From Thermoanaerobacter sp. A7A (lineage in GTDB: Bacteria > Bacillota > Thermoanaerobacteria > Thermoanaerobacterales > Thermoanaerobacteraceae): 64,000 nucleotides of DNA. The DNA is taken from the NCBI RefSeq assembly GCF_000445185.1, contig NZ_AVAF01000093.1:33357-97356 (forward strand), in the 5' to 3' direction. Positions within the stretch are counted from its first letter, which is position 1. Every line of letters begins with the position of its first letter. The notes beneath the pieces were generated by a model. The model had not been told where the DNA came from, ran no database searches, and saw only the letters and a list, made by a program, of their open reading frames with translations. Shown here one piece after another: positions 4,010-46,175 of the stretch. The position numbers were made by a program, and so were the translations under genes.

Positions 4010-4884
4010 ACTTTCGACATCCTTTTTGCAATATTTAGATATATCTCTTTTAGTTTTAAAGCATCTTCTGCCATAGTTCCTCTCGATTCACATATGACAA
4101 TAGGCTCCATCTTTCTTTCATAGAAAAGCTGTGCCAAAGGCTCAAATTCTGGCCCGTATTGAGTGTCTTTCAGTGTCCAATGCCTTTTTTCTCCCTGATC
4201 TGTGTATTCAATTCTACTAAAATGGACGTGTATCTTTTTCGCCCTTTCTTTTCCCAAATACCTTTCAATAATATCCAAAACCTCTGCATAATCTTCTATA
4301 GACTTAAACCTTCCATTATCTCTTGCATGTAAATGGGCAAAGTCTATAGTGGGAATAATTCTCTTATCCACATTGCACAGCTCCAATACTTCTTCTAAAG
4401 TACCCAATTGGTTTTTCTTTCCCATTGTCTCTGGACATAGGGTTATGTCAGTAAGTCCTTTGTCCTCTATCTCTTTTAAAATTTCCTTTAAAAGTTTTTT
4501 TGCTCTCTCTAAAGCCTCTTTTCTCGTCCCTTCTGCTCCCGAACCAGGATGAAAAGTTACCCTTTTAGCCCCCATCCATTTTCCTGCAATTAAACTATCT
4601 ATTAAGTATCTCTTGGAATTCTCCATTTTGGTTTTATCCGTAGTAGCTAAGTTTATGTAATAAGGAGCATGAACAGTAATAGTTATGTTGAATTTTTGTG
4701 CCCCTTCCTTAAGCTCCTTAGCCATCTTTTCGCTAATTTTTATTCCCCTTGAAAAAGAATATTCATACGCATCAAGCCCCATGTTATGGAGCCATTCAGG
4801 CATTTCTAAAGAAGATTTATGCCCTTCTTTGTAGAAACTATCAGAATTCCCAGATGGTCCAAATTTTATAGCCAATCCTCTCAT
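4006..4884 (-). CDS. Endonuclease IV-like TIM-barrel protein (AP endonuclease family 2)
   Basis: [29 protein letters not shown] metal-ligand pattern. Confidence 0.8.
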
Positions 4885-5396
4885 CCTTTCTTAAGTCTAA
4901 TGTAAGCCTTTATAACTTCCTCTGCTACTTCATCTATTGTCATATCGGATACATCAATAGTATAGTCGGCAAACCTATAAAAAGGCTCTCTTTCTTTTAG
5001 AAGCTGTCTTATTTTCTCTTCTGGATTATCCACCATAAGAAGAGGCCTGTCTTTATTCTTTCCTATATTCCTCAATATAATTTCTGGCCTGGCTACAAAG
5101 CAAATGACTACACCATTTTTTCTTAATTGTACAATATTTGAGGGGTTTAATACAACTCCCCCTCCTGTAGCTATGACAAAATTTTTTAATCGGGCTGCTT
5201 TTTTAACCGCTGCTTTTTCTAATTTTCTAAAATAATTTTCTCCATATTTTTCAAAAATATCTGAAACAGTCATATTTGCCATTTTTTCAATCATTTTATC
5301 CGTATCTATAAAACCAAAGGACATGGTGGTAGCTACTTTTTTGCCAACAGTAGTTTTCCCGGTAGCCATAAAACCCGTTAAAACGATGTTTTTCAT
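4881..5396 (-). CDS. aroK: Shikimate kinase
   Basis: [12 protein letters not shown]-loop, DTD, IATGGG, RPLL. Confidence 0.95.
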
Positions 5397-5493: not shown

Positions 5494-6174
5494 TTAAGGA
5501 GATTGAGAAGCAGAAGGCTGGTCTACATTATTTGATTGTTCACTTCTGGTATCATCATACAGAGACTTGAAAGGGTTACTTTTACCTTTTAAAAAATCTA
5601 TCGGTATTGAAGTACCACCACTGTCTTTCATTGAATAAATAAAAATCTGTAGAGTCAAAAGAAGGTTTTGCTGATTTTGGTCTTTTTCAATAGAGAAACT
5701 TTGAATGTTACAAAGTCTCTTAGAATTTTGTATTTCCTTTAGAAAAGCTATAATCTCATCGTAATTACCTGAAACAGTAATATTTACGGGTATTGTCACA
5801 AAATCTTCTTTTTTCACATTACTAGTTTCTTTTTGACTTTGATCTTGGTTTTCAAAAGTTAAGCTTTTTGTCTTTACACCTGTATCATTGACCATTTGTT
5901 GTAAATTAAAAAGAAAAATTTCTATATCCCTTTCTTCTGGTAAAATCATGCTTAATTCCTTTAGTTGAGTTTGTTGCTTGTCTAAACCTTCTCTTGAATT
6001 TTTATTGTTTAAAGCAGTTACTTGTTCTAAAATTTGTCTTTTATTTTTTAATTCAATAGATAAATTTCGTATTTCTAAAATTTTGGGAGTTAAATAATAT
6101 TGATAATAAAGTGCAAAAAATCCGAGTATGACAGCAAAGTAAATTAATACTCTTTCTCTTCTTGTAAGCTTCAT
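5494..6174 (-). CDS. pilO: Type IV pilus assembly protein PilO; the frame stays open past the TAA to 5410
   Basis: N-terminal TM, coiled coil, LP...IE.FL, TVSGNYDEIIAFL; follows pilM and pilN. Confidence 0.8.
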   Translation of the reverse strand: MKLTRRERVLIYFAVILGFFALYYQYYLTPKILEIRNLSIELKNKRQILEQVTALNNKNSREGLDKQQTQLKELSMILPEERDIEIFLFNLQQMVNDTGVKTKSLTFENQDQSQKETSNVKKEDFVTIPVNITVSGNYDEIIAFLKEIQNSKRLCNIQSFSIEKDQNQQNLLLTLQIFIYSMKDSGGTSIPIDFLKGKSNPFKSLYDDTRSEQSNNVDQPSASQSP

Positions 6175-6708
6175 CTATGATACCACCTTGATTTTTACTT
6201 GTAAAACATATTTTAGAAGGCCTTTATCTGTCAAATCCACCGATATCACTTTCACATCTTCTACATAACTTATACTTCTTAGGTTAAGCATAAAAGCTGC
6301 TATATCAGATTCTGAAAGTGCTTGTCCATCTATTTCCAAAATATTTTTCTCATATTTCAAAGAATCAATAGATACTTTTTCAGGTATATTTGAGGCTAAA
6401 TCTTCTAATATATTTACCGCATCCAGCTTTTGGCTTTGCAATTTTTCTATTAAGCTTTTCTTCTTTTCTATATAAGCGGATAAATCTTTTACATTTTGCT
6501 GCAACTGAGAAATGTCTTTAAATTTACCTAATTCATTATCTGCGTATTTTAAGTCTTGATACAATTTATTGATATATACCAGTGGAAAAGCTATTAAGGC
6601 AAAAATAACGGTGGTTAAAACAAACACAAAAAAAAGACGGGATATTTGTTTTTTTCTTCGCATTTTTTGTTCCTTTAGTTCAGCTGGTATGAGGTTTATA
6701 TCCTTCAA
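6175..6708 (-). CDS. pilN: Type IV pilus assembly protein PilN
   Basis: INLIP motif, TM segment, position after pilM. Confidence 0.85.
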   Translation of the reverse strand: MKDINLIPAELKEQKMRRKKQISRLFFVFVLTTVIFALIAFPLVYINKLYQDLKYADNELGKFKDISQLQQNVKDLSAYIEKKKSLIEKLQSQKLDAVNILEDLASNIPEKVSIDSLKYEKNILEIDGQALSESDIAAFMLNLRSISYVEDVKVISVDLTDKGLLKYVLQVKIKVVS

Positions 6709-6709
6709 C

Positions 6710-7669
6710 CTATTCCCCCCTTAAAAGGCATCCATAAACAGGTAAAAAGTATAAATAATCTTCTGCTTCTGTCACAAAAGTAGGTATCCTAAAATAATCT
6801 TCCACGTATTCTCTCAATCCTAAAAGTTTAGAAGTACCACCTAACATGATAATTTTTTGTATATTTTTATGATATGTGGCATAATAAAAATCAAATATTC
6901 TGCTTAGCTGTTGAAACACTTCCGAAAAGGATAAAAGTATAGTATCTTCTATATCCTTATAGTTTTCTTCTCCAATAAATTTTTTTGCCCTTTTATATTC
7001 TTCTGCTGCTTGAAAATCTATATTAAAGGCATTCGCAATTATTTGTGTAATTTTATTTCCACCAAACTCTATGCTCCTACTAAAAATGTAATTTCCGTTA
7101 TCAATCACCGTCACATTGGTAACAACTGCCCCTATATCTACAATTGACACTATTCCTTCAGCTAAATTCACCTTTTTACAAGCTTTATAAATTGAATTGC
7201 TATAAATATCAATGGCTTCTAATTTTAATTTTAACATCTCTGCTAATTTAACATATTTTTCTATTATATCCTTAGGAGAAGAGGCAATCAGTACTCTAAT
7301 CATTTTATCTTTCTCCGCAATATTAGGTAAATATCTATAATCTATTACATAATTTTCATAATCAGGAATGTATTGCTCAATCTCATAGTATAAGGCCTTT
7401 TCGACTTCCTCTTCTTTCATTAGTGGCAATTCTAAATCCCTTATTATATTATTTGAGCTGGAAATAGTAAAACACACTTGTTTTTCTTTGATATTGTTCC
7501 TTTTCAAAGTCTCATTAATTACATCTGCCAATGAATTTATATCAATAATTTTACCATTAGTTATCACATTAGAAGGCGTATTTATCATTAACCTTTTACC
7601 AAAGAATTTATTCTTTTTTTCTCCAATTAATAATTTTGTATTAAAATTTCCTATTTCAATTCCAAGCAT
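6710..7669 (-). CDS. pilM: Type IV pilus assembly protein PilM (FtsA/actin-like)
   Basis: LGIEIG, VDIGA..T, FGGNKIT, LGGTSKLLGL. Confidence 0.9.
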   Translation of the reverse strand: MLGIEIGNFNTKLLIGEKKNKFFGKRLMINTPSNVITNGKIIDINSLADVINETLKRNNIKEKQVCFTISSSNNIIRDLELPLMKEEEVEKALYYEIEQYIPDYENYVIDYRYLPNIAEKDKMIRVLIASSPKDIIEKYVKLAEMLKLKLEAIDIYSNSIYKACKKVNLAEGIVSIVDIGAVVTNVTVIDNGNYIFSRSIEFGGNKITQIIANAFNIDFQAAEEYKRAKKFIGEENYKDIEDTILLSFSEVFQQLSRIFDFYYATYHKNIQKIIMLGGTSKLLGLREYVEDYFRIPTFVTEAEDYLYFLPVYGCLLRGE

Positions 7670-7679
7670 TTTTTACCTC

Positions 7680-7940
7680 CTAATGGCGCTTATTGTTATT
7701 CACTTTAATAGCAGCCATTGTTATAGCTTTTATTATGTCTACCTCAAATTGCCTGACTAACTCATTTGTCTTTACATATAGTTCTCCTTCTTCTGATACA
7801 ACATATTTTGGAGGTAAATTGTTAAGTGCTAAAGCTTTTATGTCCATTCTACACCTGTCGCATTTACAAACGTCTAAATCTTTCAAAACCTTATCCATCA
7901 TTTGGTCAACAGCGTCTTCCATGTAATTTTTAAGATGCAT
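7680..7940 (-). CDS. comFB: ComFB-family protein (start at MHLKNY)
   Basis: KNYME, CKCDRC..D..ALALNNLPPKY signature; AAGGAGAGG RBS before ATG 7940. Confidence 0.88.
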   Translation of the reverse strand: MHLKNYMEDAVDQMMDKVLKDLDVCKCDRCRMDIKALALNNLPPKYVVSEEGELYVKTNELVRQFEVDIIKAITMAAIKVNNNKRH

Positions 7941-7959
7941 AAAAACCCTCTCCTTATTT

Positions 7960-8619
7960 TTATTGTGTTTGTGGAATTGAATCAATTATCCACTTATCTA
8001 CTATAGGTGGAGACTGTGATGCATTACCACTAAGAATCACCTTATAATTCGCACTCTTATCATCACCCATCTTCGTAATATTTACATTAATATTAAATGT
8101 AATCTCCGCATAACCGTAACGTACGATTTTGTTCATCCTACCTTCCGTCCATGCACGTACTTTATAGGTTAAAACTTGAGTTCCTTCATTTTCAAAAGCT
8201 TTAATTGAAGGAGGAACCATTTCTATACTGTCAATTTTATACTCTTGTCCTGAATCACCCAGTGAAATCCACTCCCCTACTGGGATGTCAAGTCCAAATG
8301 ACTCCTTTAATAAATTTTTGGCATCTTGTTTATACTGAATTTTAGTTGTATTTTTATTTTCAACTACATTTATCCAAAATTTACCTTTCCCTTTTCCTTT
8401 ACCTTTCCCTTGATAAGCATCTAATAAAGCTATGTTAAATTCATTTTTTACTCGTTCAAGGCCAGCTTCTGCTGCATAAGTGGCTGATATAGAATTTGCA
8501 TAAGCATGAGAAATTTTGTAATTGGTAATAGTTACTTCTAAGATTGCTACAGCTAAAACTGTGAGAATCAAAATTACCATTAAAGTAAAAATTAAGGCAG
8601 AACCTCTCTCATCGAACAT
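7960..8619 (-). CDS. PilX-like minor pilin
   Basis: ERG|SALIFTLMVI N-terminus and A.YAAEAGLE motif. Confidence 0.75.
   Translation of the reverse strand: MFDERGSALIFTLMVILILTVLAVAILEVTITNYKISHAYANSISATYAAEAGLERVKNEFNIALLDAYQGKGKGKGKGKFWINVVENKNTTKIQYKQDAKNLLKESFGLDIPVGEWISLGDSGQEYKIDSIEMVPPSIKAFENEGTQVLTYKVRAWTEGRMNKIVRYGYAEITFNINVNITKMGDDKSANYKVILSGNASQSPPIVDKWIIDSIPQTQ
8380..8409 (-). repeat. (Gly-Lys)5 low-complexity repeat in the PilX-like gene
   Basis: GGG AAA GGT AAA GGA AAA GGG AAA GGT AAA; 12-mer repeated at an 18-nt period. Confidence 0.9.
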
Positions 8620-9118
8620 TTATATCACTCTTTCTTAAAAAAACGTCTGTAGAAAGAGAAAATCTGTTTGATCCATTACCATCACTTTGTCCAATTATTT
8701 GGATATTTATCATGTTGTTAGGTTTTTTAGTCACCTTAAAATCATAAATATTGACAGCTAATTGAAGCTTACTACCTCTACTGTCCGTGTCAGATTCTTT
8801 GATATGGGTATAAAGAATAAGATTTTCTAGCGTTATTGTATAATCACGATACCCTCTATCTGTTAATACTTTTTTTATCGATAGACCACAGCCATTATTA
8901 ATAATCTCGACTTTAGAAGGCCCTTTTTCTAATAAAGATACAATATAATTCATAGCAAACCTAACATTTTGTTCCACGTCTACGCTATTTTGTGTACTTG
9001 AAAATGACTTGTACCCCGAATAATATAAAGATGAATAAACCCCTATCACAATCCCCAATATTGCCAGTGTCACAATAAGTTCAATGAGGGTAAAACCCTC
9101 TTCTTTTCTCACCACCAT
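8609..9118 (-). CDS. Minor pilin (PilW-like), probable start MVVRKEEG
   Basis: EEG|FTLIELIV prepilin cleavage motif with E5. Confidence 0.85.
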   Translation of the reverse strand: MVVRKEEGFTLIELIVTLAILGIVIGVYSSLYYSGYKSFSSTQNSVDVEQNVRFAMNYIVSLLEKGPSKVEIINNGCGLSIKKVLTDRGYRDYTITLENLILYTHIKESDTDSRGSKLQLAVNIYDFKVTKKPNNMINIQIIGQSDGNGSNRFSLSTDVFLRKSDINVR

Positions 9119-9201
9119 TTTAACCACCATAGCCAAAATTTTTGTTTTGGTAATCTCATTCCAGCCCAATGTAGCTACCACAAAACCTAAAAATAAAGTA
9201 G

Positions 9202-9594
9202 TCAAGGCATTTCTAGAGTAGCATAAGAAGTTATATTTGTTCTAGGCGCCACAACATAAAGGGTATACATAGGAGTGTTTGAACCAATTTTCCCTACTTT
9301 GATCTGATATTGAGAGAGTTCTCCTGTAGAAGTTTGCTGTTCAACATAGGCTATAAAACCTTCCTCTTTATACTTAGTTATTATTTCATCAAGGTTTGAT
9401 ACATTTCCCGCTTTTATGTTTTCTGCAATTGTCTGCGCAATAGTAGCTTCTTTTGTCCTTATCCTAGAATCAGCAGAAGTAATAACAGATTGACTAAAAA
9501 TACCTAAAAGAGGTATTGCCACTATTGCAAACATAGCTATTGAGACAAGAACCTCTATTAAAGTCATGCCTCTATTATCTTTTAAAATCTTCAT
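9202..9594 (-). CDS. Minor pilin (PilV-like), probable start MKILKDNRG
   Basis: NRG|MTLIEVL motif; AGGAGTGA RBS. Confidence 0.85.
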   Translation of the reverse strand: MKILKDNRGMTLIEVLVSIAMFAIVAIPLLGIFSQSVITSADSRIRTKEATIAQTIAENIKAGNVSNLDEIITKYKEEGFIAYVEQQTSTGELSQYQIKVGKIGSNTPMYTLYVVAPRTNITSYATLEMP

Positions 9595-9604
9595 AAAATC
9601 ACTC

Positions 9605-10063
9605 CTAATAGTTCCTCCCACTTATCATAATGCGCCCTGTTACCACTGCCACACTTATGTAAATTTCGCTTCCTTTATCATTTTTTAAAGTTATTGTACA
9701 AGCTCCAATAGGAGTTCCCATCTGATTAAAGTATATTTCTACTTTTCCGCCATCTTTTTTACTTATTTTAATTCCCTCAGGTAAATTTTTTATCTTAATA
9801 TTTTCATTGTCATCTTTTCTCTTTATGTAATACCTCGTCTTAGTGTCATCGCTTTCAAAACGTAAAATTTCTCCTTCAAAAATACTTTTTTGCTGTATGT
9901 ACCTTAAGTCATTTACAACCTCACGTGCAATAAGAGTAAGCCTTATATTTGACCTTGTCGTATCAAAAAAGTCAGTCGAAGGAATGACTATAAGAACTAT
10001 AATGGACAAGATAGCCAAAACTGTTACCAGCTCTATTAAAGTTAATCCTTCTTCCTTTTTCAT
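9605..10063 (-). CDS. Minor pilin (FimT/GspH-like)
   Basis: EEG|LTLIELV motif; C-terminal FNQMG.P...TGRI. Confidence 0.85.
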   Translation of the reverse strand: MKKEEGLTLIELVTVLAILSIIVLIVIPSTDFFDTTRSNIRLTLIAREVVNDLRYIQQKSIFEGEILRFESDDTKTRYYIKRKDDNENIKIKNLPEGIKISKKDGGKVEIYFNQMGTPIGACTITLKNDKGSEIYISVAVVTGRIMISGRNY

Positions 10064-10067
10064 AAGC

Positions 10068-10826
10068 TTAGCCTCTTATAAATTTTATATAATAATTTAA
10101 CATCTCATAGCCATACAAAATCGAGATGAGCCATGCAATGGAAATGTAGGGTGCAAAAGGAATGTAATCTTTTCTTCCTTTAATTTTCAAAGCTACTAAT
10201 ATAACGCCACCCAATGCTCCAATGATTACAGAAAGAAAAAGTACTAAAATTGTAAGCTTCCACCCTATAAAAAATCCAATTAAGGCCATAAGTTTTATGT
10301 CTCCTCCTCCCATCTCTCCTCCTGAAATTAAGGAGATGAGAAGGAGAATACCCCCACCCAAGACCAATCCCATTATGTAATCTATAAAGCCATAATTGTA
10401 CATCAAAACTCTAAATATTATTCCACCTATAAAGCCTACTAAAATGATTTTATTTGGCACAATCCTGTGTTCTATATCAATAAAACTTACAGCTATCAAA
10501 ATAGAAGCCAAAAACATGTAAGAAAAAGCTTTAAAATCTAAACCGAATTTATAGTAAATTATCAAAAACACAATTCCTGTCAATAGTTCCACAATAGGGT
10601 ACCTTATTGAAATCTTTTCTCCACAATACCTACATCTTCCTTTAAGTAGAATATAACTCAATATAGGTATTAAATCAATAGTTTTTAATTCATGTTCACA
10701 TATAGGACAATGAGAAGGGGGATAGACTATTGATTCTTTTCTTGGCACTCTGTGTATGACCACATTTAAAAAACTTCCTATAATTGTGCCGAATAAAAAT
10801 ATGAATATGTAAAGTAGTATTTCCAT
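10068..10826 (-). CDS. pilD: Prepilin peptidase
   Basis: GSFLNVVIHRVP, PPSHC..C, RCRYC, D..H, GGGD.KL, IPFAP. Confidence 0.95.
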   Translation of the reverse strand: MEILLYIFIFLFGTIIGSFLNVVIHRVPRKESIVYPPSHCPICEHELKTIDLIPILSYILLKGRCRYCGEKISIRYPIVELLTGIVFLIIYYKFGLDFKAFSYMFLASILIAVSFIDIEHRIVPNKIILVGFIGGIIFRVLMYNYGFIDYIMGLVLGGGILLLISLISGGEMGGGDIKLMALIGFFIGWKLTILVLFLSVIIGALGGVILVALKIKGRKDYIPFAPYISIAWLISILYGYEMLNYYIKFIRG

Positions 10827-10853
10827 AATGACCTCCTAAAAAAATAATAGGGA

Positions 10854-10871
10854 GGGCACAAAAATGTGCCC
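10854..10871 (-). terminator. Hairpin after the major pilin gene
   Basis: GGGCACA-TTTT-TGTGCCC with a T-rich tract a few nt downstream. Confidence 0.6.
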
Positions 10872-10906
10872 GTTAATATTCATTAAACACCTTTTATTTT
10901 AATATT

Positions 10907-11260
10907 TTATGGATAAAGCTGTGTATCTCCAACCTTAACTGTAGCTTTTCCATCGTCACTCATTTCAAGTGTGAACTGGCCACCATCAGCAGGTTGTGGA
11001 ACTTTATTTAAATATCCTGCATCAACTAAATCTTTTATGTTATCGGTGGTGTTCCCTGTCTCTATATAATACCTCTCAGCCGCTTGTCCTATAATTTGTG
11101 CATTTGCTATATCAGCATTCTCTTTTGCTGTTTTTAATGAAGTTGTCACCCTTGGCACAGCTATTGCTGCCAGTATCCCTAAAATTGCAATGACAACAAT
11201 CAATTCAATTAGTGTAAAACCTCTCTCATCCTTGTTTAATGCTTTTACAAACCATTCCAT
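10907..11260 (-). CDS. pilA: Major type IV pilin
   Basis: ERG|FTLIELIVVIAILGILAAIAVP; strong RBS; followed by a hairpin. Confidence 0.9.
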   Translation of the reverse strand: MEWFVKALNKDERGFTLIELIVVIAILGILAAIAVPRVTTSLKTAKENADIANAQIIGQAAERYYIETGNTTDNIKDLVDAGYLNKVPQPADGGQFTLEMSDDGKATVKVGDTQLYP

Positions 11261-11284
11261 CCTTTTTCACCCCCTTTCCCAATA

Positions 11285-12496
11285 TCACTGACCTATGAAA
11301 TTGTATAACTCAAACAGCGGCATGACAATTGAAATAACTATAAATCCTACCACTGTCGCCAGCATAACAATTATTAATGGCTCTAGAAGAGTTGTCATTT
11401 GTGAGACAGCTGTATCCACTTCTCCGTCATAAAAATCAGCAGTTTTATTTAATATGCTGTCCAATGAACCTGAACTTTCACCAATACTTATCATCTGAAT
11501 CACCATTGGCGGGAAAATGCCAATTCTTTTTAAAGGTTCTGAAAGGGGTAAGCCTTTTTTTATATCCTCTTGAGCTTTCCCAAGACCTTCTGCTACTACC
11601 GTATTACCCACAACTTTTTCTACTACTTCCATTGCCTTCATAAGCGGTACACCAGCACTTATCAATGTTCCTAAAGTCCTTGTAAACCTGGAAATTAAAA
11701 TCTTTTTGTTTAGAGGGCCAAAGATTGGCATGTTTAAAAGCATTCTGTCATAAATGCGCCTTCCTTCAGGTGTCTTCAAAAAACTCGAAATCGAATAAGA
11801 AATCACCAAAATTACTCCTGTGTAAAAGTACCAATATTGAGATATAGAACTGCTTATAGCAATAAGTATTCGAGTGGGAAGAGGCAACTGGATTCCAGCA
11901 TTTTTAAACATACCTACAAAAATAGGTAAAACATTTGTCAAAAGAAAAATAACAACTAATACAGCTACAACAGATACAATAAGAGGATAAGTCAAAGCAG
12001 ACTTTATTTTCTGATTTAATTCATTCTCTTTTTCATAGTGTTCTGCCATTTCATTCATCACTTTATCTAAAGTACCGCTTACTTCCCCCACTTCCACCAT
12101 ATTATATAAAAGCATAGGAAAAACATCACTGTGCCTTTTCATAGCATCAGAAAGAGTCCTTCCTTTTTGAACTTCTTCGTACACCTCTCTCAAAGCATTT
12201 TTCAGTCTTTTATTCTCCACTTGTTCTCTCATAGTAACCAAAGAGGTCACTATAGGAATCCCTGCATTTATCAGAGTGGCAAACTGCCGACAGAAGACCG
12301 CAATATCTTTTACTTTGACCTTTTTAAAAGAACTAAAATCGAGTATGTCTTGTTTGACTATCTCTTCTTGTATGTCGATTATATAATAATTTCTCTGTTT
12401 TAAAATGTCAATACACTGAGATTTTGAGTCAACTTCCAAAGTCCCTGTAACGAGATTTCCTCCCATATCCCTTGCCCTATAAGCATACAACGGCAT
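11285..12496 (-). CDS. pilC: Type IV pilus platform protein PilC
   Basis: FCRQFATLINAG, GEVSG.LD, SA..YP, LEPL.I; two GspF repeats. Confidence 0.95.
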   Translation of the reverse strand: MPLYAYRARDMGGNLVTGTLEVDSKSQCIDILKQRNYYIIDIQEEIVKQDILDFSSFKKVKVKDIAVFCRQFATLINAGIPIVTSLVTMREQVENKRLKNALREVYEEVQKGRTLSDAMKRHSDVFPMLLYNMVEVGEVSGTLDKVMNEMAEHYEKENELNQKIKSALTYPLIVSVVAVLVVIFLLTNVLPIFVGMFKNAGIQLPLPTRILIAISSSISQYWYFYTGVILVISYSISSFLKTPEGRRIYDRMLLNMPIFGPLNKKILISRFTRTLGTLISAGVPLMKAMEVVEKVVGNTVVAEGLGKAQEDIKKGLPLSEPLKRIGIFPPMVIQMISIGESSGSLDSILNKTADFYDGEVDTAVSQMTTLLEPLIIVMLATVVGFIVISIVMPLFELYNFIGQ

Positions 12497-12506
12497 ATAA
12501 TCACCT

Positions 12507-13565
12507 CTATATCATGCGAGAAAAATTCTCTTGGTCTACGCAATATGTCAAAGCATCCTCTAATGATATAACTCCTCTTTTTAACAGATGTAAAATAGAC
12601 ATATCCATTGTCATCATTCCAAACTTGCTACCTGTTTGAACTGCCGACTGTATCTGGAAAGTCTTCCCTTCTCTTATGAGATTTCTTATAGCAGGAGTAG
12701 CAATCATCACTTCTGTCGCAACTACTCTGCCGCTGTTGTCCTTTTTAGGTATAAGCTGTTGAGAAATAATTCCCTCTAAAACATTTGAAAGCTGAATTTT
12801 TATCTGCTGCTGCTGATGGGGAGGAAAAACATCAATAATCCTATCGATCGTCTTAACGGCTCCTATTGTGTGAAGAGTGGACAAAACAAGATGGCCTGTC
12901 TCAGCAGCAGTTATAGCAATTTGGATGGTTTCTAAATCCCTCATCTCTCCCACTAATATAACATCCGGGTCCTCCCTTAAAGCAGCCCTTAAAGCTGAAG
13001 CGTAAGATGCCGCATCATGCCCAATCTCTCTTTGATTTACTATGCTTTTGTTGTGTTTATGTAAATATTCTATAGGGTCTTCCAATGTGAGAATATGACA
13101 AGTCCTTTTAGAGTTTATCCAATCCACCATCGCAGCCAGTGTAGTAGATTTACCACTGCCAGTAGGTCCTGTTACCAATATAAGCCCTCTTGCCTTTAAA
13201 GCTAAGTCTTTAAGTATTGGAGGAAGTCCCAATTCCTCTATTGTAGGTATTCTCAAAGCTACAGACCTTATTGCAAGGCTATAACTTCCCCTTTGTTTGT
13301 ATACATTTATTCTAAACCTTCCTAATCCTGTAACTGAATAGGACAAATCAATATCTCCATTTTGTTCTAACTTTTTCAATTGCTCACTTGTCAATAAATC
13401 CTTAACTATTTCTTCAGTCTGCCCAGGGGTAAAAGGCTCCCCTTCTAATTTTTCTAAATAGCCATTAATTCTAAGAACTGGAGGTACTCCAACCGTTATA
13501 TGCAAGTCTGAAGCTTTTCTTTCAACTACTAATTTTAAAAGTTCCTTTGTATCCATATCCCTCAT
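12507..13565 (-). CDS. pilT: Retraction ATPase PilT
   Basis: ASDLH, GPTGSGKSTT, LREDPD, TGHLV.STLH, AIRNLIRE. Confidence 0.97.
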   Translation of the reverse strand: MRDMDTKELLKLVVERKASDLHITVGVPPVLRINGYLEKLEGEPFTPGQTEEIVKDLLTSEQLKKLEQNGDIDLSYSVTGLGRFRINVYKQRGSYSLAIRSVALRIPTIEELGLPPILKDLALKARGLILVTGPTGSGKSTTLAAMVDWINSKRTCHILTLEDPIEYLHKHNKSIVNQREIGHDAASYASALRAALREDPDVILVGEMRDLETIQIAITAAETGHLVLSTLHTIGAVKTIDRIIDVFPPHQQQQIKIQLSNVLEGIISQQLIPKKDNSGRVVATEVMIATPAIRNLIREGKTFQIQSAVQTGSKFGMMTMDMSILHLLKRGVISLEDALTYCVDQENFSRMI

Positions 13566-15238
13566 TCCTCGTAAGTTAGTCTTATCATTTCATCAATTGT
13601 AGTTTTTCCTTGTAATACAAGTCTTTTAGCACTTTCTCGTAAAGTTTTCATGCCATTTTTTACAGCCTGAGCTCCAATAACATCAGAGGAAACCTTAGCA
13701 TTTATAAGCTCTCTAATATCAGAAGTAACAGTCATTATCTCATATATAGGAATTCTTCCCCTATAGCCTGTTTTATTACAAACAGGGCACCCTCTCCCCT
13801 TGTATAAAGTAATGTCTTCATTTTCTGAAATTCCCAATAGCTCTTTTTCGCCTTTGGAAGCTTTGTAAGAAATTCTACAGTTATCACATATTTTTCTCGC
13901 CAATCTCTGAGCAATAACCCCTACTACAGAAGAAGACACAAGATAAGGCTCTATACCCATATCTATAAGCCTAGTCACCGCTCCCGCCGCATCATTTGTA
14001 TGCAAAGTGGAAAGGACTAAGTGCCCTGTTATGGCAGAGCGAATAGCTATCTCAGCAGTTTCAGTATCTCTAATTTCTCCAATCATAATTATATCAGGGT
14101 CTTGCCTCAAAATTGACCTAAGAGCAGTCGCAAAGGTAAGGCCTGCCTTTTCATTAACTTGTACCTGGTTTATTCCCTCAAGGGAATACTCAACAGGGTC
14201 CTCAACAGTTATTATATTTACATTGGGTTTGTTAAGCTCTCTCAGCATTGCATAAAGAGTGGTGGTTTTCCCACTACCTGTAGGACCAGTCAAAAGCACA
14301 ATGCCATTAGGCCTTTTGATAAGTTTATCAAAGAGCACCAGATCCTCTTCTTCAAAACCTAATTGCTCCTTTGTCATTATAAAATTTTCCTTGTCTAAAA
14401 GCCTCAATACCAATTTCTCTCCAAAAACAGTGGGCAACGAAGAAACTCTTATGTCAATATTTTTACCACCTGTAGTAAAATCAAATCTGCCATCTTGAGG
14501 AAGTCTTCTTTCAGCGATGTTCATATTAGCCATAATTTTTACTCTTGTCACAACAGGGGCATGGGTACTTTTTATAGTCTTCATAGCTTCTGTTAATTGT
14601 CCATCTATCCTAAATCGAATTCTAAGGTCTTTTTCAGTAGGTTCAATGTGAATATCTGAAGCCCTATTTTTTATTGCCTGCTCAATTATAGAATTTACAA
14701 AGCGTACAGCAGGCGCGTTTTGTACTTCTTCAAGAATCTCATCTGGCAGCTCTTCTTGACTTTCACTTTGAAACTCCTTTTTAAAATCCTGTACTGCTTT
14801 TTCTGCCTGTTCTCTTCCGTAAATTCTATCTATGGCTTTTAAGATACTTCCTTCAGAAGCAATTAAAGGCTTTACATTTTGTTTCGTAATGATTCTCACA
14901 TCATCTAGTGCAAAAATATTCAGAGGGTCTGCCATTGCTACCAATATACCATCTTCATCTTTTTTTATAGGAATAATAGTATGTCTTTTAGCAACAGCTT
15001 CGGGAATTAATTTTGCCACATCTGGGTCAATATAGTATTTTTGCAAATCTACACGTGGAATACCTAATTGAAATTCTAAAGCCTCTAGTATTTGGCTTTC
15101 TGTAACATACCCCAATTTAATGAGAACTTTTCCTAACTTTTCTCCTGTTTTGCTCTGAACTTCTATTGCGTGCTTTAGTTGTTCTTCTGTTATAAGCCCT
15201 ACCTCAACTAAAAGCTCTCCTAGCTTTTTTTTGGCCAT
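13562..15238 (-). CDS. pilB: Extension ATPase PilB with N-terminal MshEN-like domain (start at MAKKKL)
   Basis: RASDIH, ERRLPQDG, GPTGSGKTTT, LRQDPD, Zn-finger CxxC pairs; GGAGG RBS before 15238. Confidence 0.95.
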   Translation of the reverse strand: MAKKKLGELLVEVGLITEEQLKHAIEVQSKTGEKLGKVLIKLGYVTESQILEALEFQLGIPRVDLQKYYIDPDVAKLIPEAVAKRHTIIPIKKDEDGILVAMADPLNIFALDDVRIITKQNVKPLIASEGSILKAIDRIYGREQAEKAVQDFKKEFQSESQEELPDEILEEVQNAPAVRFVNSIIEQAIKNRASDIHIEPTEKDLRIRFRIDGQLTEAMKTIKSTHAPVVTRVKIMANMNIAERRLPQDGRFDFTTGGKNIDIRVSSLPTVFGEKLVLRLLDKENFIMTKEQLGFEEEDLVLFDKLIKRPNGIVLLTGPTGSGKTTTLYAMLRELNKPNVNIITVEDPVEYSLEGINQVQVNEKAGLTFATALRSILRQDPDIIMIGEIRDTETAEIAIRSAITGHLVLSTLHTNDAAGAVTRLIDMGIEPYLVSSSVVGVIAQRLARKICDNCRISYKASKGEKELLGISENEDITLYKGRGCPVCNKTGYRGRIPIYEIMTVTSDIRELINAKVSSDVIGAQAVKNGMKTLRESAKRLVLQGKTTIDEMIRLTYEE

Positions 15239-15251
15239 AAAATATACCTCC

Positions 15252-15278
15252 AAAAATAATAAAGCCGACATAAGCCGG
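15252..15278 (-). terminator. Putative terminator overlapping the riboswitch 3' end
   Basis: CCGGC-TTAT-GTCGG followed by CTTTATTATTTTT. Confidence 0.55.
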
Positions 15279-15343
15279 TTGCACTACTGTATCCGTGAGG
15301 CATAAAGTGCCCACATATAGCCTCACTTCATCTACTCTTTATA
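15270..15343 (-). ncRNA. c-di-GMP-II riboswitch upstream of pilB
   Basis: Minus strand GAAG-TGAGGC..GTGGGCACTTTAT-GCCTCAC..AGTAGTGCAACCGGC: paired GTGAGGC/GCCTCAC, GCAC/GTGC pseudoknot and the class-II tail. Confidence 0.88.
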
Positions 15344-15350
15344 AAATATT

Positions 15351-16205
15351 CTACAAATTATGCGTAATTCCTTCTTTTAAATGCATGTATACCAAATTTT
15401 TGTCGAAAAATCCCCCTGTCCATAATTTGAAAGAATAATTAGCTTGATTTACCAACATAGAAAGTCCATTAGAATACTTTATTCCATTCTTTTTCGCATG
15501 TTTTAAAAGAGCAGTTTCAAAAGGATTGTAAATAAGGTCATAGACAAATTTAGCTTTTAAAACCACTCTTTCGCTAACAGGTGAATCTTCCACATTTGGA
15601 TACATTCCCATGCTTGTAGTATTAACAAGCATGTCTATTTCTGGTATTTCTTCTACTTCATTTATACTACAGTAATCGCACTGAATCTTAAATTCTTTTT
15701 TAATGTACTCTGACAAATCTTTTGCTCTTTCAACACTTCTATTGGCAATTATTATCGAATCTATCCCTTTTAGAGCAAGAGCGACACAAACTGCCTTAGA
15801 AGCCCCACCAGCTCCTAAAACAACAGCTTTCCTCCCTTCAATTTTTTCTCCTACTTCTGTTAATGAGTCTATAAAGCCATAGACATCCGTATTATATCCT
15901 TTTAATATTCCTCCTTCATTGACTACAGTATTGACTGCGCCAATTTTTAATGCTTCTTCTGAGACCACATCTAGGTATTTAATTATTTTCTCTTTATGAG
16001 GTACAGTCACATTAAATCCTTTTATTCCTAAAGCTTTGGCTCCTTTTACTGCATCTTCAAGTTTTTCTGGCAAAACGTCAAAAGCAGTGTAGACACAATT
16101 TAAATTTAAAGACTTAAAAGCATAGTTATGTATTAAAGGGGATAAACTATGTTCTACAGGATGCCCTATAAGACCATACAGTTTAGTATTTGAATTAATC
16201 TCCAT
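15351..16205 (-). CDS. aroE: Shikimate dehydrogenase (start at MEINS)
   Basis: GHPVEHSLSP..H, NVTVPHK, GAVNT, NTD, GAGGA, NTTS.GM. Confidence 0.96.
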   Translation of the reverse strand: MEINSNTKLYGLIGHPVEHSLSPLIHNYAFKSLNLNCVYTAFDVLPEKLEDAVKGAKALGIKGFNVTVPHKEKIIKYLDVVSEEALKIGAVNTVVNEGGILKGYNTDVYGFIDSLTEVGEKIEGRKAVVLGAGGASKAVCVALALKGIDSIIIANRSVERAKDLSEYIKKEFKIQCDYCSINEVEEIPEIDMLVNTTSMGMYPNVEDSPVSERVVLKAKFVYDLIYNPFETALLKHAKKNGIKYSNGLSMLVNQANYSFKLWTGGFFDKNLVYMHLKEGITHNL

Positions 16206-16695
16206 ATCTCTCAATCCTTTTAAGTACATGTTTTTCCGCTTTTCTCATAAGTTTAGTCCATCCTAATTCCTCTTCTGATAGAGGTTTTACCAAAATAGTA
16301 TATAAACCTGCTCTTTTGCCACCAAAAATATCAGTAAATATTTGATCTCCTATTAAAGCTGTTTCATTAGGCTTAGCATTTAAAATCTTTAAAGCCTTTT
16401 TAAAAGCTCCTTTTCTCGGCTTAATGGCCCAAGCTATTCCAGGTACACCAACTTTTTCTTTAAATTCATTCACTCTTCTTTTAGTGTTATTTGAAATGAG
16501 ACAAATTTTAAACCCCTCTTTTTTTACTTTTTCAAGCCATTCAATAGTCATTTTATCGGGAAATTTTGATTTTTGAGGCACTAAAGTATTGTCAATATCT
16601 AAGACAAGACTGGTAATTCCTTTTTCTTTTAAAAAGTCTAAATTGATATCATAGATATTTTCCACTATAATATCAGGAATTAACTTTTTATACAT
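16195..16695 (-). CDS. yqeG: YqeG-family HAD IIIA phosphatase
   Basis: LDIDNTL, SNN, KP, IGDQIFTD. Confidence 0.9.
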   Translation of the reverse strand: MYKKLIPDIIVENIYDINLDFLKEKGITSLVLDIDNTLVPQKSKFPDKMTIEWLEKVKKEGFKICLISNNTKRRVNEFKEKVGVPGIAWAIKPRKGAFKKALKILNAKPNETALIGDQIFTDIFGGKRAGLYTILVKPLSEEELGWTKLMRKAEKHVLKRIERYGD

Positions 16696-16717: not shown

Positions 16718-16747
16718 ATTATATAATAAAAAAAAATAAACTGTCAA
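16718..16747 (-). promoter_or_regulatory. SigA promoter for yqeG-aroE
   Basis: TTGACA-N18-TATAAT with a T9 run in the spacer. Confidence 0.75.
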
Positions 16748-42591: not shown

Positions 42592-42609
42592 ACTCTTCCC
42601 TCCATAAAA

Positions 42610-42792
42610 AAAACCCCATAGTGCCGTGCCTCCCGGTAGTTTTTGAACCCGGACTCACAAAGTGGGTGCCCTCTTGGCAGCTTCATATTTCCGTTCGAAG
42701 ACGGCCTATATTCCACTGCCAAAGCCCAGGCTCCCTTATTATTGGTGTTGGCTCAAACTTTCACCGGACCTCACGTACACCACAGGGCTTTT
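42610..42792 (-). ncRNA. ssrS: 6S RNA
   Basis: Long terminal pairing (GCCCTGTGGTGT/GCACTATGGGGT, CCGGT/ACCGG, TTTGAGCC/GGTTCAAA) around a central bubble; aspS-6S-tcdA synteny as in B. subtilis bsrA. Confidence 0.9.
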
Positions 42793-45944: not shown

Positions 45945-46175
45945 CATTTAAAAACCCCTCGTCTGCAACAATTTGCAGGGACGAGAGGTTAAATCCCGTG
46001 GTGCCACCCTGATTTGGACTCATTCCCTTAACGCAGGTTCACGGACACAGCCTACCTTATCGACTGGTCTGCTCACAGGTGTCTTTCGCAATAGCATAAG
46101 TATGAAGATACTCTCAATCACGGTATCTTCTCCCTGTATACCTGCTATTGCTACTCTCCTGGTCATCGCATTTAT
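45945..46175 (-). promoter_or_regulatory. T-box leader of hisS-aspS (Asp specifier GAC)
   Basis: Stem I with AGTA/GAA loop and AGGGAG box; specifier loop GAAAGACA; GGGTGGCACCACGG...CGTCCC antiterminator; terminator with T-tract. Confidence 0.92.

Follow-up and report, generated by a model that had tools for sequence, protein, structure and literature searches.

A crystal structure has reportedly been obtained for the c-di-GMP-II aptamer of Clostridium acetobutylicum. A close known counterpart of the element studied here is Cdi-2-4 of C. difficile, located upstream of pilA1, a class-II transcriptional ON switch shown experimentally; all four class-II switches of this organism are ON switches (PMC6366702). 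Besides RNA, several proteins related to type IV pili perceive the same second messenger. MshEN domains bind c-di-GMP in Vibrio cholerae MshE, Clostridium perfringens PilB2, and Myxococcus xanthus PilB (PMC11656802), and ComFB proteins are c-di-GMP receptors, among them ComFB of Thermoanaerobacter brockii, comFB being found within the pilus operons of the Thermoanaerobacterales (PMC12448109). As for transcription, the sigma factor SigH recognizes a motif consisting of AGGA and GAAT with a 17-18-nt spacer, and drives competence genes in non-sporulating Bacillota, as cited in the same article (PMC12456013).

In this study, we analyzed a leader in a 64-kb window (the whole stretch of 64,000 nucleotides from Thermoanaerobacter sp. 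A7A) in which the minus strand carries, in this order, sigK, yqeG, aroE, an aptamer, a hairpin with a U-tract, the sequence GGAGG, and pilB. This leader of the pil operon contains a class-II riboswitch that is preceded by a probable sigma-H-type promoter and most likely acts as a c-di-GMP ON switch. Class, association with type IV pili, and ON logic are all known already from C. difficile, which makes the core finding confirmatory. The parts worth following up are the sigma-H-type promoter and the multi-level c-di-GMP input; the architecture is compact and the class unremarkable. The features of the locus, all on the minus strand, are as follows.

16718-16747, minus strand: TTGACA-18-TATAAT, a sigma-A consensus promoter that precedes yqeG-aroE, 12 of 12 matches (promoter scan)
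15351-16229, minus strand: aroE, shikimate dehydrogenase (TIGR00507, 290.3 bits; cut-off 200.2)
15348-15374, minus strand: sigma-H-type promoter candidate GAAGGAATT-N11-GTAGAAT, of the form AGGA-N17-GAAT
15372-15369 and 15351-15348, minus strand: its -35 AGGA and -10 GAAT, overlapping the last aroE codons and the stop
15265-15347, minus strand: c-di-GMP-II aptamer (RF01786, 60.6 bits)
15343-15337 with 15274-15269, minus strand: aptamer helix P1, core UAUAAAG
15335-15333 with 15291-15289, minus strand: aptamer helix P2
15326-15320 with 15301-15295, minus strand: aptamer helix P3
15312-15307 with 15284-15277, minus strand: aptamer pseudoknot, loop GGGCAC with GUGC..CC
15252-15278, minus strand: expression platform, hairpin CCGGC-UUAU-GUCGG (15278-15265) and U-rich tract CUUUAUUAUUUUU (15264-15252)
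15278-15274 and 15269-15265, minus strand: hairpin arms CCGGC and GUCGG, loop UUAU (terminator scan)
15247-15251, minus strand: GGAGG, the pilB Shine-Dalgarno sequence, with a distance of 8 nt to ATG 15238, conserved in alignment A1
13562-15238, minus strand: pilB, type IV pilus assembly ATPase (TIGR02538/TIGR02533; Pfam T2SSE and MshEN)
5494-13565, minus strand: rest of the operon, namely pilT, pilC, major pilin, prepilin peptidase, minor pilins, PilX_N protein, comFB, and pilM-pilN-pilO (NCBIfam, Pfam)
7680-7940, minus strand: comFB, stand-alone (PF10719, 91.3 bits), flanked by the PilX_N minor-pilin-like gene and pilM

The aptamer and its relatives

A sequence-only reading of this DNA had placed a c-di-GMP-II riboswitch between aroE and pilB, without naming a strand, and had itself proposed a covariance-model search as a check. 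The search (RF01786, Rfam release 15) gave a minus-strand match at 15265-15347 of the window with 60.6 bits (E 5e-11), above the curated gathering score of 53.5 bits and over the full length of the model (positions 1-84 of 84), which bears out both the class and the place. It is the only RF01786 match in the 2.6-Mb genome. As delimited by Rfam, the aptamer begins 3 nt past the aroE stop TAG (15353-15351), and the P1 core begins 7 nt after it, close to the distance of about 8 nt given earlier. The conserved UGA, AGU, and GCAACCGGC core positions of the RF01786 alignment are all found in the window aptamer. The outer consensus P1 pairs are unformed, however, and about six A/U-rich pairs remain of a consensus P1 of 11 bp. 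By duplex folding, P1 of the window species amounts to -0.8 kcal/mol, with a bulge left by a 1-nt deletion that is common to two other species. The program-made ORF track had run pilB into this element, as the earlier reading pointed out: the longest ORF begins within the aptamer, at ATG 15271, whereas the conserved start is ATG 15238, with the N-terminus MAKKKLGELL kept in relatives and the upstream extension not.

When RF01786 was searched in 40 relatives together with the window genome, matches were obtained in 22 of the 41 genomes. The aroE-riboswitch-pilB arrangement is present in eight of the ten genomes of the window's genus (g1), in one g4 genome, and in all nine genomes of Thermoanaerobacterium (g2), where it represents a second aptamer copy scoring 38-49 bits. 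These pilB-linked Thermoanaerobacterium copies (L023-L030) fall below the gathering score of 53.5 bits, yet are clear homologues with compensatory changes, and annotation based on the gathering score would miss them. The assignment of g2 to Thermoanaerobacterium comes from locus L031 (T. butyriciformans), which shares its contig with L030. The family carrying the arrangement is thus the thermophilic Thermoanaerobacteraceae. In Thermoanaerobacterium, the first copies (L004-L011, L015) belong to a separate c-di-GMP-II riboswitch that scores higher, at 65-76 bits, and has a strong terminator made up of GCCGUAGU...ACUGCGGC and then UUUUUGUUUU; the ORFs next to them are small and uncharacterised. 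Among 80 more distant pilB loci, a regular-expression search found an aptamer upstream of pilB only in Thermoanaerobacterium and in one Bacillota MAG, the expression being strict enough that diverged copies may escape it. Five other matches in these loci are not aptamers, as they are located either deep within the coding region or past it.

The class assignment made from the sequence is further backed by compensatory changes among relatives. The covariation alignment (A1) brings together 17 aroE-riboswitch-pilB leaders belonging to three genera of Thermoanaerobacteraceae. Pairing in it amounts to 92.7% for P2, P3, and the pseudoknot, both partners are altered in four pairs, and the covariation score was reached by none of 500 shuffles; in slid-partner controls, pairing falls to 25-49%. 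In P2, a G-C pair becomes A-U in four sequences and G-U in three, and in P3 G-C is replaced by U-A in eight sequences and by A-U in one. The six pairs of the pseudoknot are paired in 100% of the leaders, with one of them changing from A-U to G-C in 8 of the 17. P1 was compared by per-sequence duplex folding, as the columns of the MAFFT alignment are unreliable there because of gaps. It can be drawn in every leader as a helix of 5-7 bp that is A/U-rich, bulged, and weak (-0.8 to -4.6 kcal/mol), and its sequence varies by genus (UAUAAAG/CUUUAUG, UGA(U)UG/CAUCA, AUA(G)UG/CAUAU). The class-II c-di-GMP riboswitch at this locus is genuine but fairly ordinary.

The terminator hairpin and the logic of the switch

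The expression platform is a hairpin of the intrinsic-terminator type, at the weak end of the range: a 5-bp stem with four G-C pairs and one G-U pair, followed by nine U in 12 nt, the U-tract being broken by A residues. Its calculated energy is -6.2 kcal/mol at 37 C, -3.4 kcal/mol at 55 C, and about -1.8 kcal/mol at 65 C, and the terminator of the window species is marginal. Comparison nevertheless shows the stem to be 100% paired and invariant in 16 of the 17 leaders across three genera. As the aptamer dictates its 5' arm, this stem shows no covariation in the 17 leaders, and conservation is the sole comparative evidence for it. The exception in the window's genus is species G008, in which a 12-nt deletion between two CGGC repeats has removed the hairpin and left the aptamer; there (L018), the U-tract and the Shine-Dalgarno sequence come immediately after P1.

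The hairpin overlaps the 3' strand of P1 (15274-15269) and the last two bases of the pseudoknot (15278-15277), and the earlier observation that the 3' strand of the aptamer is also the 5' arm and loop of the terminator is therefore correct at both places. The variants of the hairpin loop among the leaders (UUAU, UUUAU, AUAU, AUCAUU) track the 5' strand of P1. Such co-change of loop and P1 is the signature of nucleotides that belong to two mutually exclusive structures. The pilB-linked c-di-GMP-II aptamer of the Bacillota MAG (L059, 69.4 bits) is an independent example: its terminator, which is long and classical, is built like that at the pilB leader studied here, with the 3' strand of P1 as its 5' arm.

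Nearest-neighbour calculations, made with neither pseudoknot nor ligand, gave -19.9 kcal/mol at 37 C and -5.9 kcal/mol at 65 C for P2, P3, and the terminator together, as compared with -7.9 and +2.9 kcal/mol, respectively, for P1, P2, and P3. The ligand-free terminator fold is thus ahead of the P1-closed fold by 9-12 kcal/mol. On these model energies, the terminator is predicted to be the default state, and the cost of P1 and the pseudoknot has to be covered by ligand binding, which makes the element an ON switch. The ON logic had been predicted from the sequence, and the shared nucleotides, the invariance of the hairpin, and the calculated ligand-free energies lend it support. Without ligand, the nascent RNA would fold P2 and P3 and then the CCGGC-UUAU-GUCGG hairpin with its U-rich tract, and transcription would halt just ahead of the Shine-Dalgarno sequence of pilB. 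With c-di-GMP, the CC of CCGGC would be bound in the pseudoknot and GCUUAUG in P1, so that the hairpin would be blocked and RNA polymerase would continue into pilB, the ON state. Ligand binding and termination are the two steps of this scheme that we infer. A transcriptional ON switch, as with Cdi-2-4 and pilA1 in C. difficile, is most likely the best reading of the leader.

Two other readings of the leader have to be weighed against it. Control could instead be translational: in the ligand-free RNA, the 3' strand of P3, AUGCCUCA, would pair with the Shine-Dalgarno region UGGAGGUAU, and the ligand would lock P3 and thereby release the ribosome-binding site. The AUGCCUCA/UGGAGGUAU helix does occur in minimum-free-energy folds of the leader, and this anti-Shine-Dalgarno helix is present in all species of the window's genus, including the terminator-less G008. 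However, Thermoanaerobacterium is without it (CCUC is changed to ACUC), 8-10 of the 17 sequences are unpaired at key positions, and pairing and covariation of the helix are no better than in shuffles; moreover, P3 is a strong local hairpin and the first to form during transcription. We therefore regard translational control as unlikely to be the main mechanism, and from the distribution of the helix, Shine-Dalgarno sequestration is a possible genus-specific add-on and not a conserved mechanism. The element of the window species might also be a decaying, non-functional relic, given a score just 7 bits over the gathering score, the 1-nt deletion in P1, and a genus in which other members have lost the hairpin (G008) or, as in G002 and G006, the element as a whole. 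Against this, every conserved core position is intact, as are the pseudoknot and the hairpin; an identical sequence is found in another species (G007); and the compensatory changes point to purifying selection acting on the fold, all of which makes a relic very unlikely. The transcriptional ON switch remains the reading that we prefer. An extended terminator with a lower stem, AGUAGUG/UAUUAUU, was also considered; it is predicted by minimum free energy, is restricted to the genus, does no better than shuffles, and is therefore not taken by us for the conserved platform.

The promoter and the origin of the transcripts

The sequence-only reading had noted a TAGAAT -10 element that overlaps the aroE stop and has no clear -35. 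Both of these observations stand, as neither a promoter scan nor inspection by eye at 16-18 nt spacing found a sigma-70 -35 for TAGAAT; the element itself is better read as the 3' part of a sigma-H-type promoter, AGGA-N17-GAAT, than as a sigma-A -10 that lacks a -35. CATAAT as a -10 and an extended -10 (TG) were both rejected on spacing. For scanning we used a longer form of the motif, RnAGGAwWW-N11-12-RnnGAAT, which we take to be that of the B. subtilis literature. The candidate is its sole strict match on both strands of the 64-kb window, as compared with an average of 0.87 matches per window in first-order Markov simulations.

The motif is kept in 16 of the 17 pilB-linked leaders (8 of 8 in g1 and 8 of 8 aligned ones in g2), and in Thermoanaerobacterium it lies in another aroE reading frame, extends past the aroE stop, and is found 29-74 nt upstream of the aptamer. 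It also precedes pilB in two genomes of f2, a different family of the order, with a yqeG-like upstream gene and without a riboswitch, and as a near-match in g3, where GAAA replaces GAAT. Outside the family of Thermoanaerobacterium and the window, it is seen in only 1 of 79 more distant pilB loci. The genome encodes a sigH gene (TIGR02859, 385 bits; cut-off 294.8). On the basis of this distribution, we lean towards AGGA-N17-GAAT being the ancestral pil promoter of the order, and the riboswitch a lineage-specific insertion behind it.

Transcription would then probably initiate at the sigma-H-type promoter within the last codons of aroE; the start site and the dependence on sigma-H are again steps that we infer. 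A start 6-8 nt past GAAT would fall inside the nominal P1 and leave only three to five P1 pairs, which weighs against the preferred reading; a P1 truncated in this way agrees with the unformed outer consensus pairs. Some transcripts may also arrive by read-through from yqeG-aroE.

It is conceivable, although on balance doubtful, that the leader has no promoter of its own and that the riboswitch is an intercistronic gate in a sigma-A-driven yqeG-aroE-pil transcript, in which the aroE unit would end conditionally at the hairpin and c-di-GMP would permit read-through into pilB. The sigma-A promoter preceding yqeG, TTGACA-18-TATAAT, is perfect, and no terminator-like site was found from there down to the aptamer, the stretch after aroE included. 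In addition, the complete 5' strand of P1 would occur only in read-through transcripts, and two congeners have pilB about 17 nt past the aroE stop with neither riboswitch nor sigma-H motif, so that pilB is probably co-transcribed with aroE in those two. On the other hand, AGGA-N17-GAAT is kept across genera in differing aroE frames and also where the upstream gene is not aroE, which would be difficult to account for if the motif were no promoter. As this alternative touches only the origin of the transcripts, it leaves the ON logic unchanged, and both sources may coexist. Initiation at the sigma-H-type promoter is the origin that we favor.

The pilus operon and comparison with known systems

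The regulated unit is a type IV pilus operon of about 10 kb, probably of the competence type. It is wedged between two shikimate-pathway genes, aroK (4881-5396) and aroE (15351-16229), and aroE and pilB are neighbours in a class-level relative (L118) as well. Its first gene product scores 641.7 bits with TIGR02538, under the equivalog cut-off of 675.65, and 640.9 bits with TIGR02533 (GspE), over the cut-off of 630.25. At the N-terminus of PilB, residues 5-57 match the c-di-GMP motif NF053729 with 74.4 bits (cut-off 38). Four GGDEF-domain proteins are encoded in the genome and could supply c-di-GMP. Within the operon, the pilin gene has a promoter-like TTGTCA-17-TACAAT ahead of it (11328-11300), and between the pilin gene and pilD there is a hairpin, GGGCACA-UUUU-UGUGCCC (10854-10871, minus strand), after which come UCCCUAUUAUUUUUUUAGGAGG and the start of pilD; with its 7-bp stem the hairpin resembles a partial terminator, and its layout of hairpin, U-tract, and Shine-Dalgarno sequence is like that of the riboswitch platform. 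Elsewhere in the window, Rfam matches were found on the minus strand for a 6S RNA (42609-42791, 115.6 bits) and a T-box leader (45974-46175, 96.9 bits, just over the gathering score of 93).

Judging from the encoded domains, a single operon would combine c-di-GMP sensing at the RNA level with sensing in two proteins, and c-di-GMP probably acts again at the protein level via the MshEN motif of PilB and ComFB. One may go further and imagine a layered coherent feed-forward arrangement, in which sigma-H supplies a growth-phase or competence input, c-di-GMP is read by the riboswitch, PilB-MshEN, and ComFB, and the sensitivity to the ligand depends on the promoter. This last idea stems from the aptamer abutting the -10: sigma-H transcripts would carry a truncated P1 and sigma-A read-through transcripts a full one, so that, if true, the differing P1 length would give the same riboswitch a promoter-dependent ligand sensitivity. 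The arrangement as a whole is speculative, and we consider it distinctly improbable.

What the locus offers is a compact thermophilic example, in which a 5-bp hairpin against a weak P1 of about 6 bp decides the outcome at 60-70 C, and it could become a minimal system for kinetic switching at high temperature. In the Thermoanaerobacterales, moreover, the pilus operon, likely one for competence, is seen to have a sigma-H-type promoter that is conserved, with a riboswitch inserted behind it in a lineage-specific manner. These features have a bearing on the engineering of natural competence in Thermoanaerobacter and Thermoanaerobacterium, which include production strains.

Like MshE, PilB2, and M. 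xanthus PilB, the PilB protein of this locus has an N-terminal c-di-GMP-binding motif. In contrast to those cases, the gene for the receptor itself lies here behind a c-di-GMP riboswitch, an arrangement of which we found no description in the literature searched. With the SigH promoters of Bacillota (PMC12456013), the candidate promoter has in common the motif and its spacing, a position upstream of a pilus or competence-type operon, and the presence of sigH in the genome; it differs in that it sits inside the preceding coding sequence. The P1-P2-P3 fold and the GGGCAC/GUGC..CC pseudoknot are shared with the RF01786 consensus (Lee et al. 2010), whereas the outer half of the 11-bp P1 is unpaired here and its 3' nucleotides, GUCGG, are the 3' arm of the terminator. 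The remaining comparison is that with Cdi-2-4 (Bordeleau et al. 2015, summarized in PMC6366702 and PMC11656802). Both elements belong to the same aptamer class, both regulate a type IV pilus operon, and both follow the same logic of termination without ligand and read-through with c-di-GMP, which is a prediction in the present case. The first gene here is the ATPase gene pilB, whereas it is the major pilin gene in C. difficile. Unlike Cdi-2-4, the element described here has a minimal leader, with the aptamer abutting both the -10 and the aroE stop and a hairpin of only 5 bp as terminator, and it resides in a thermophile behind a candidate sigma-H-type promoter.
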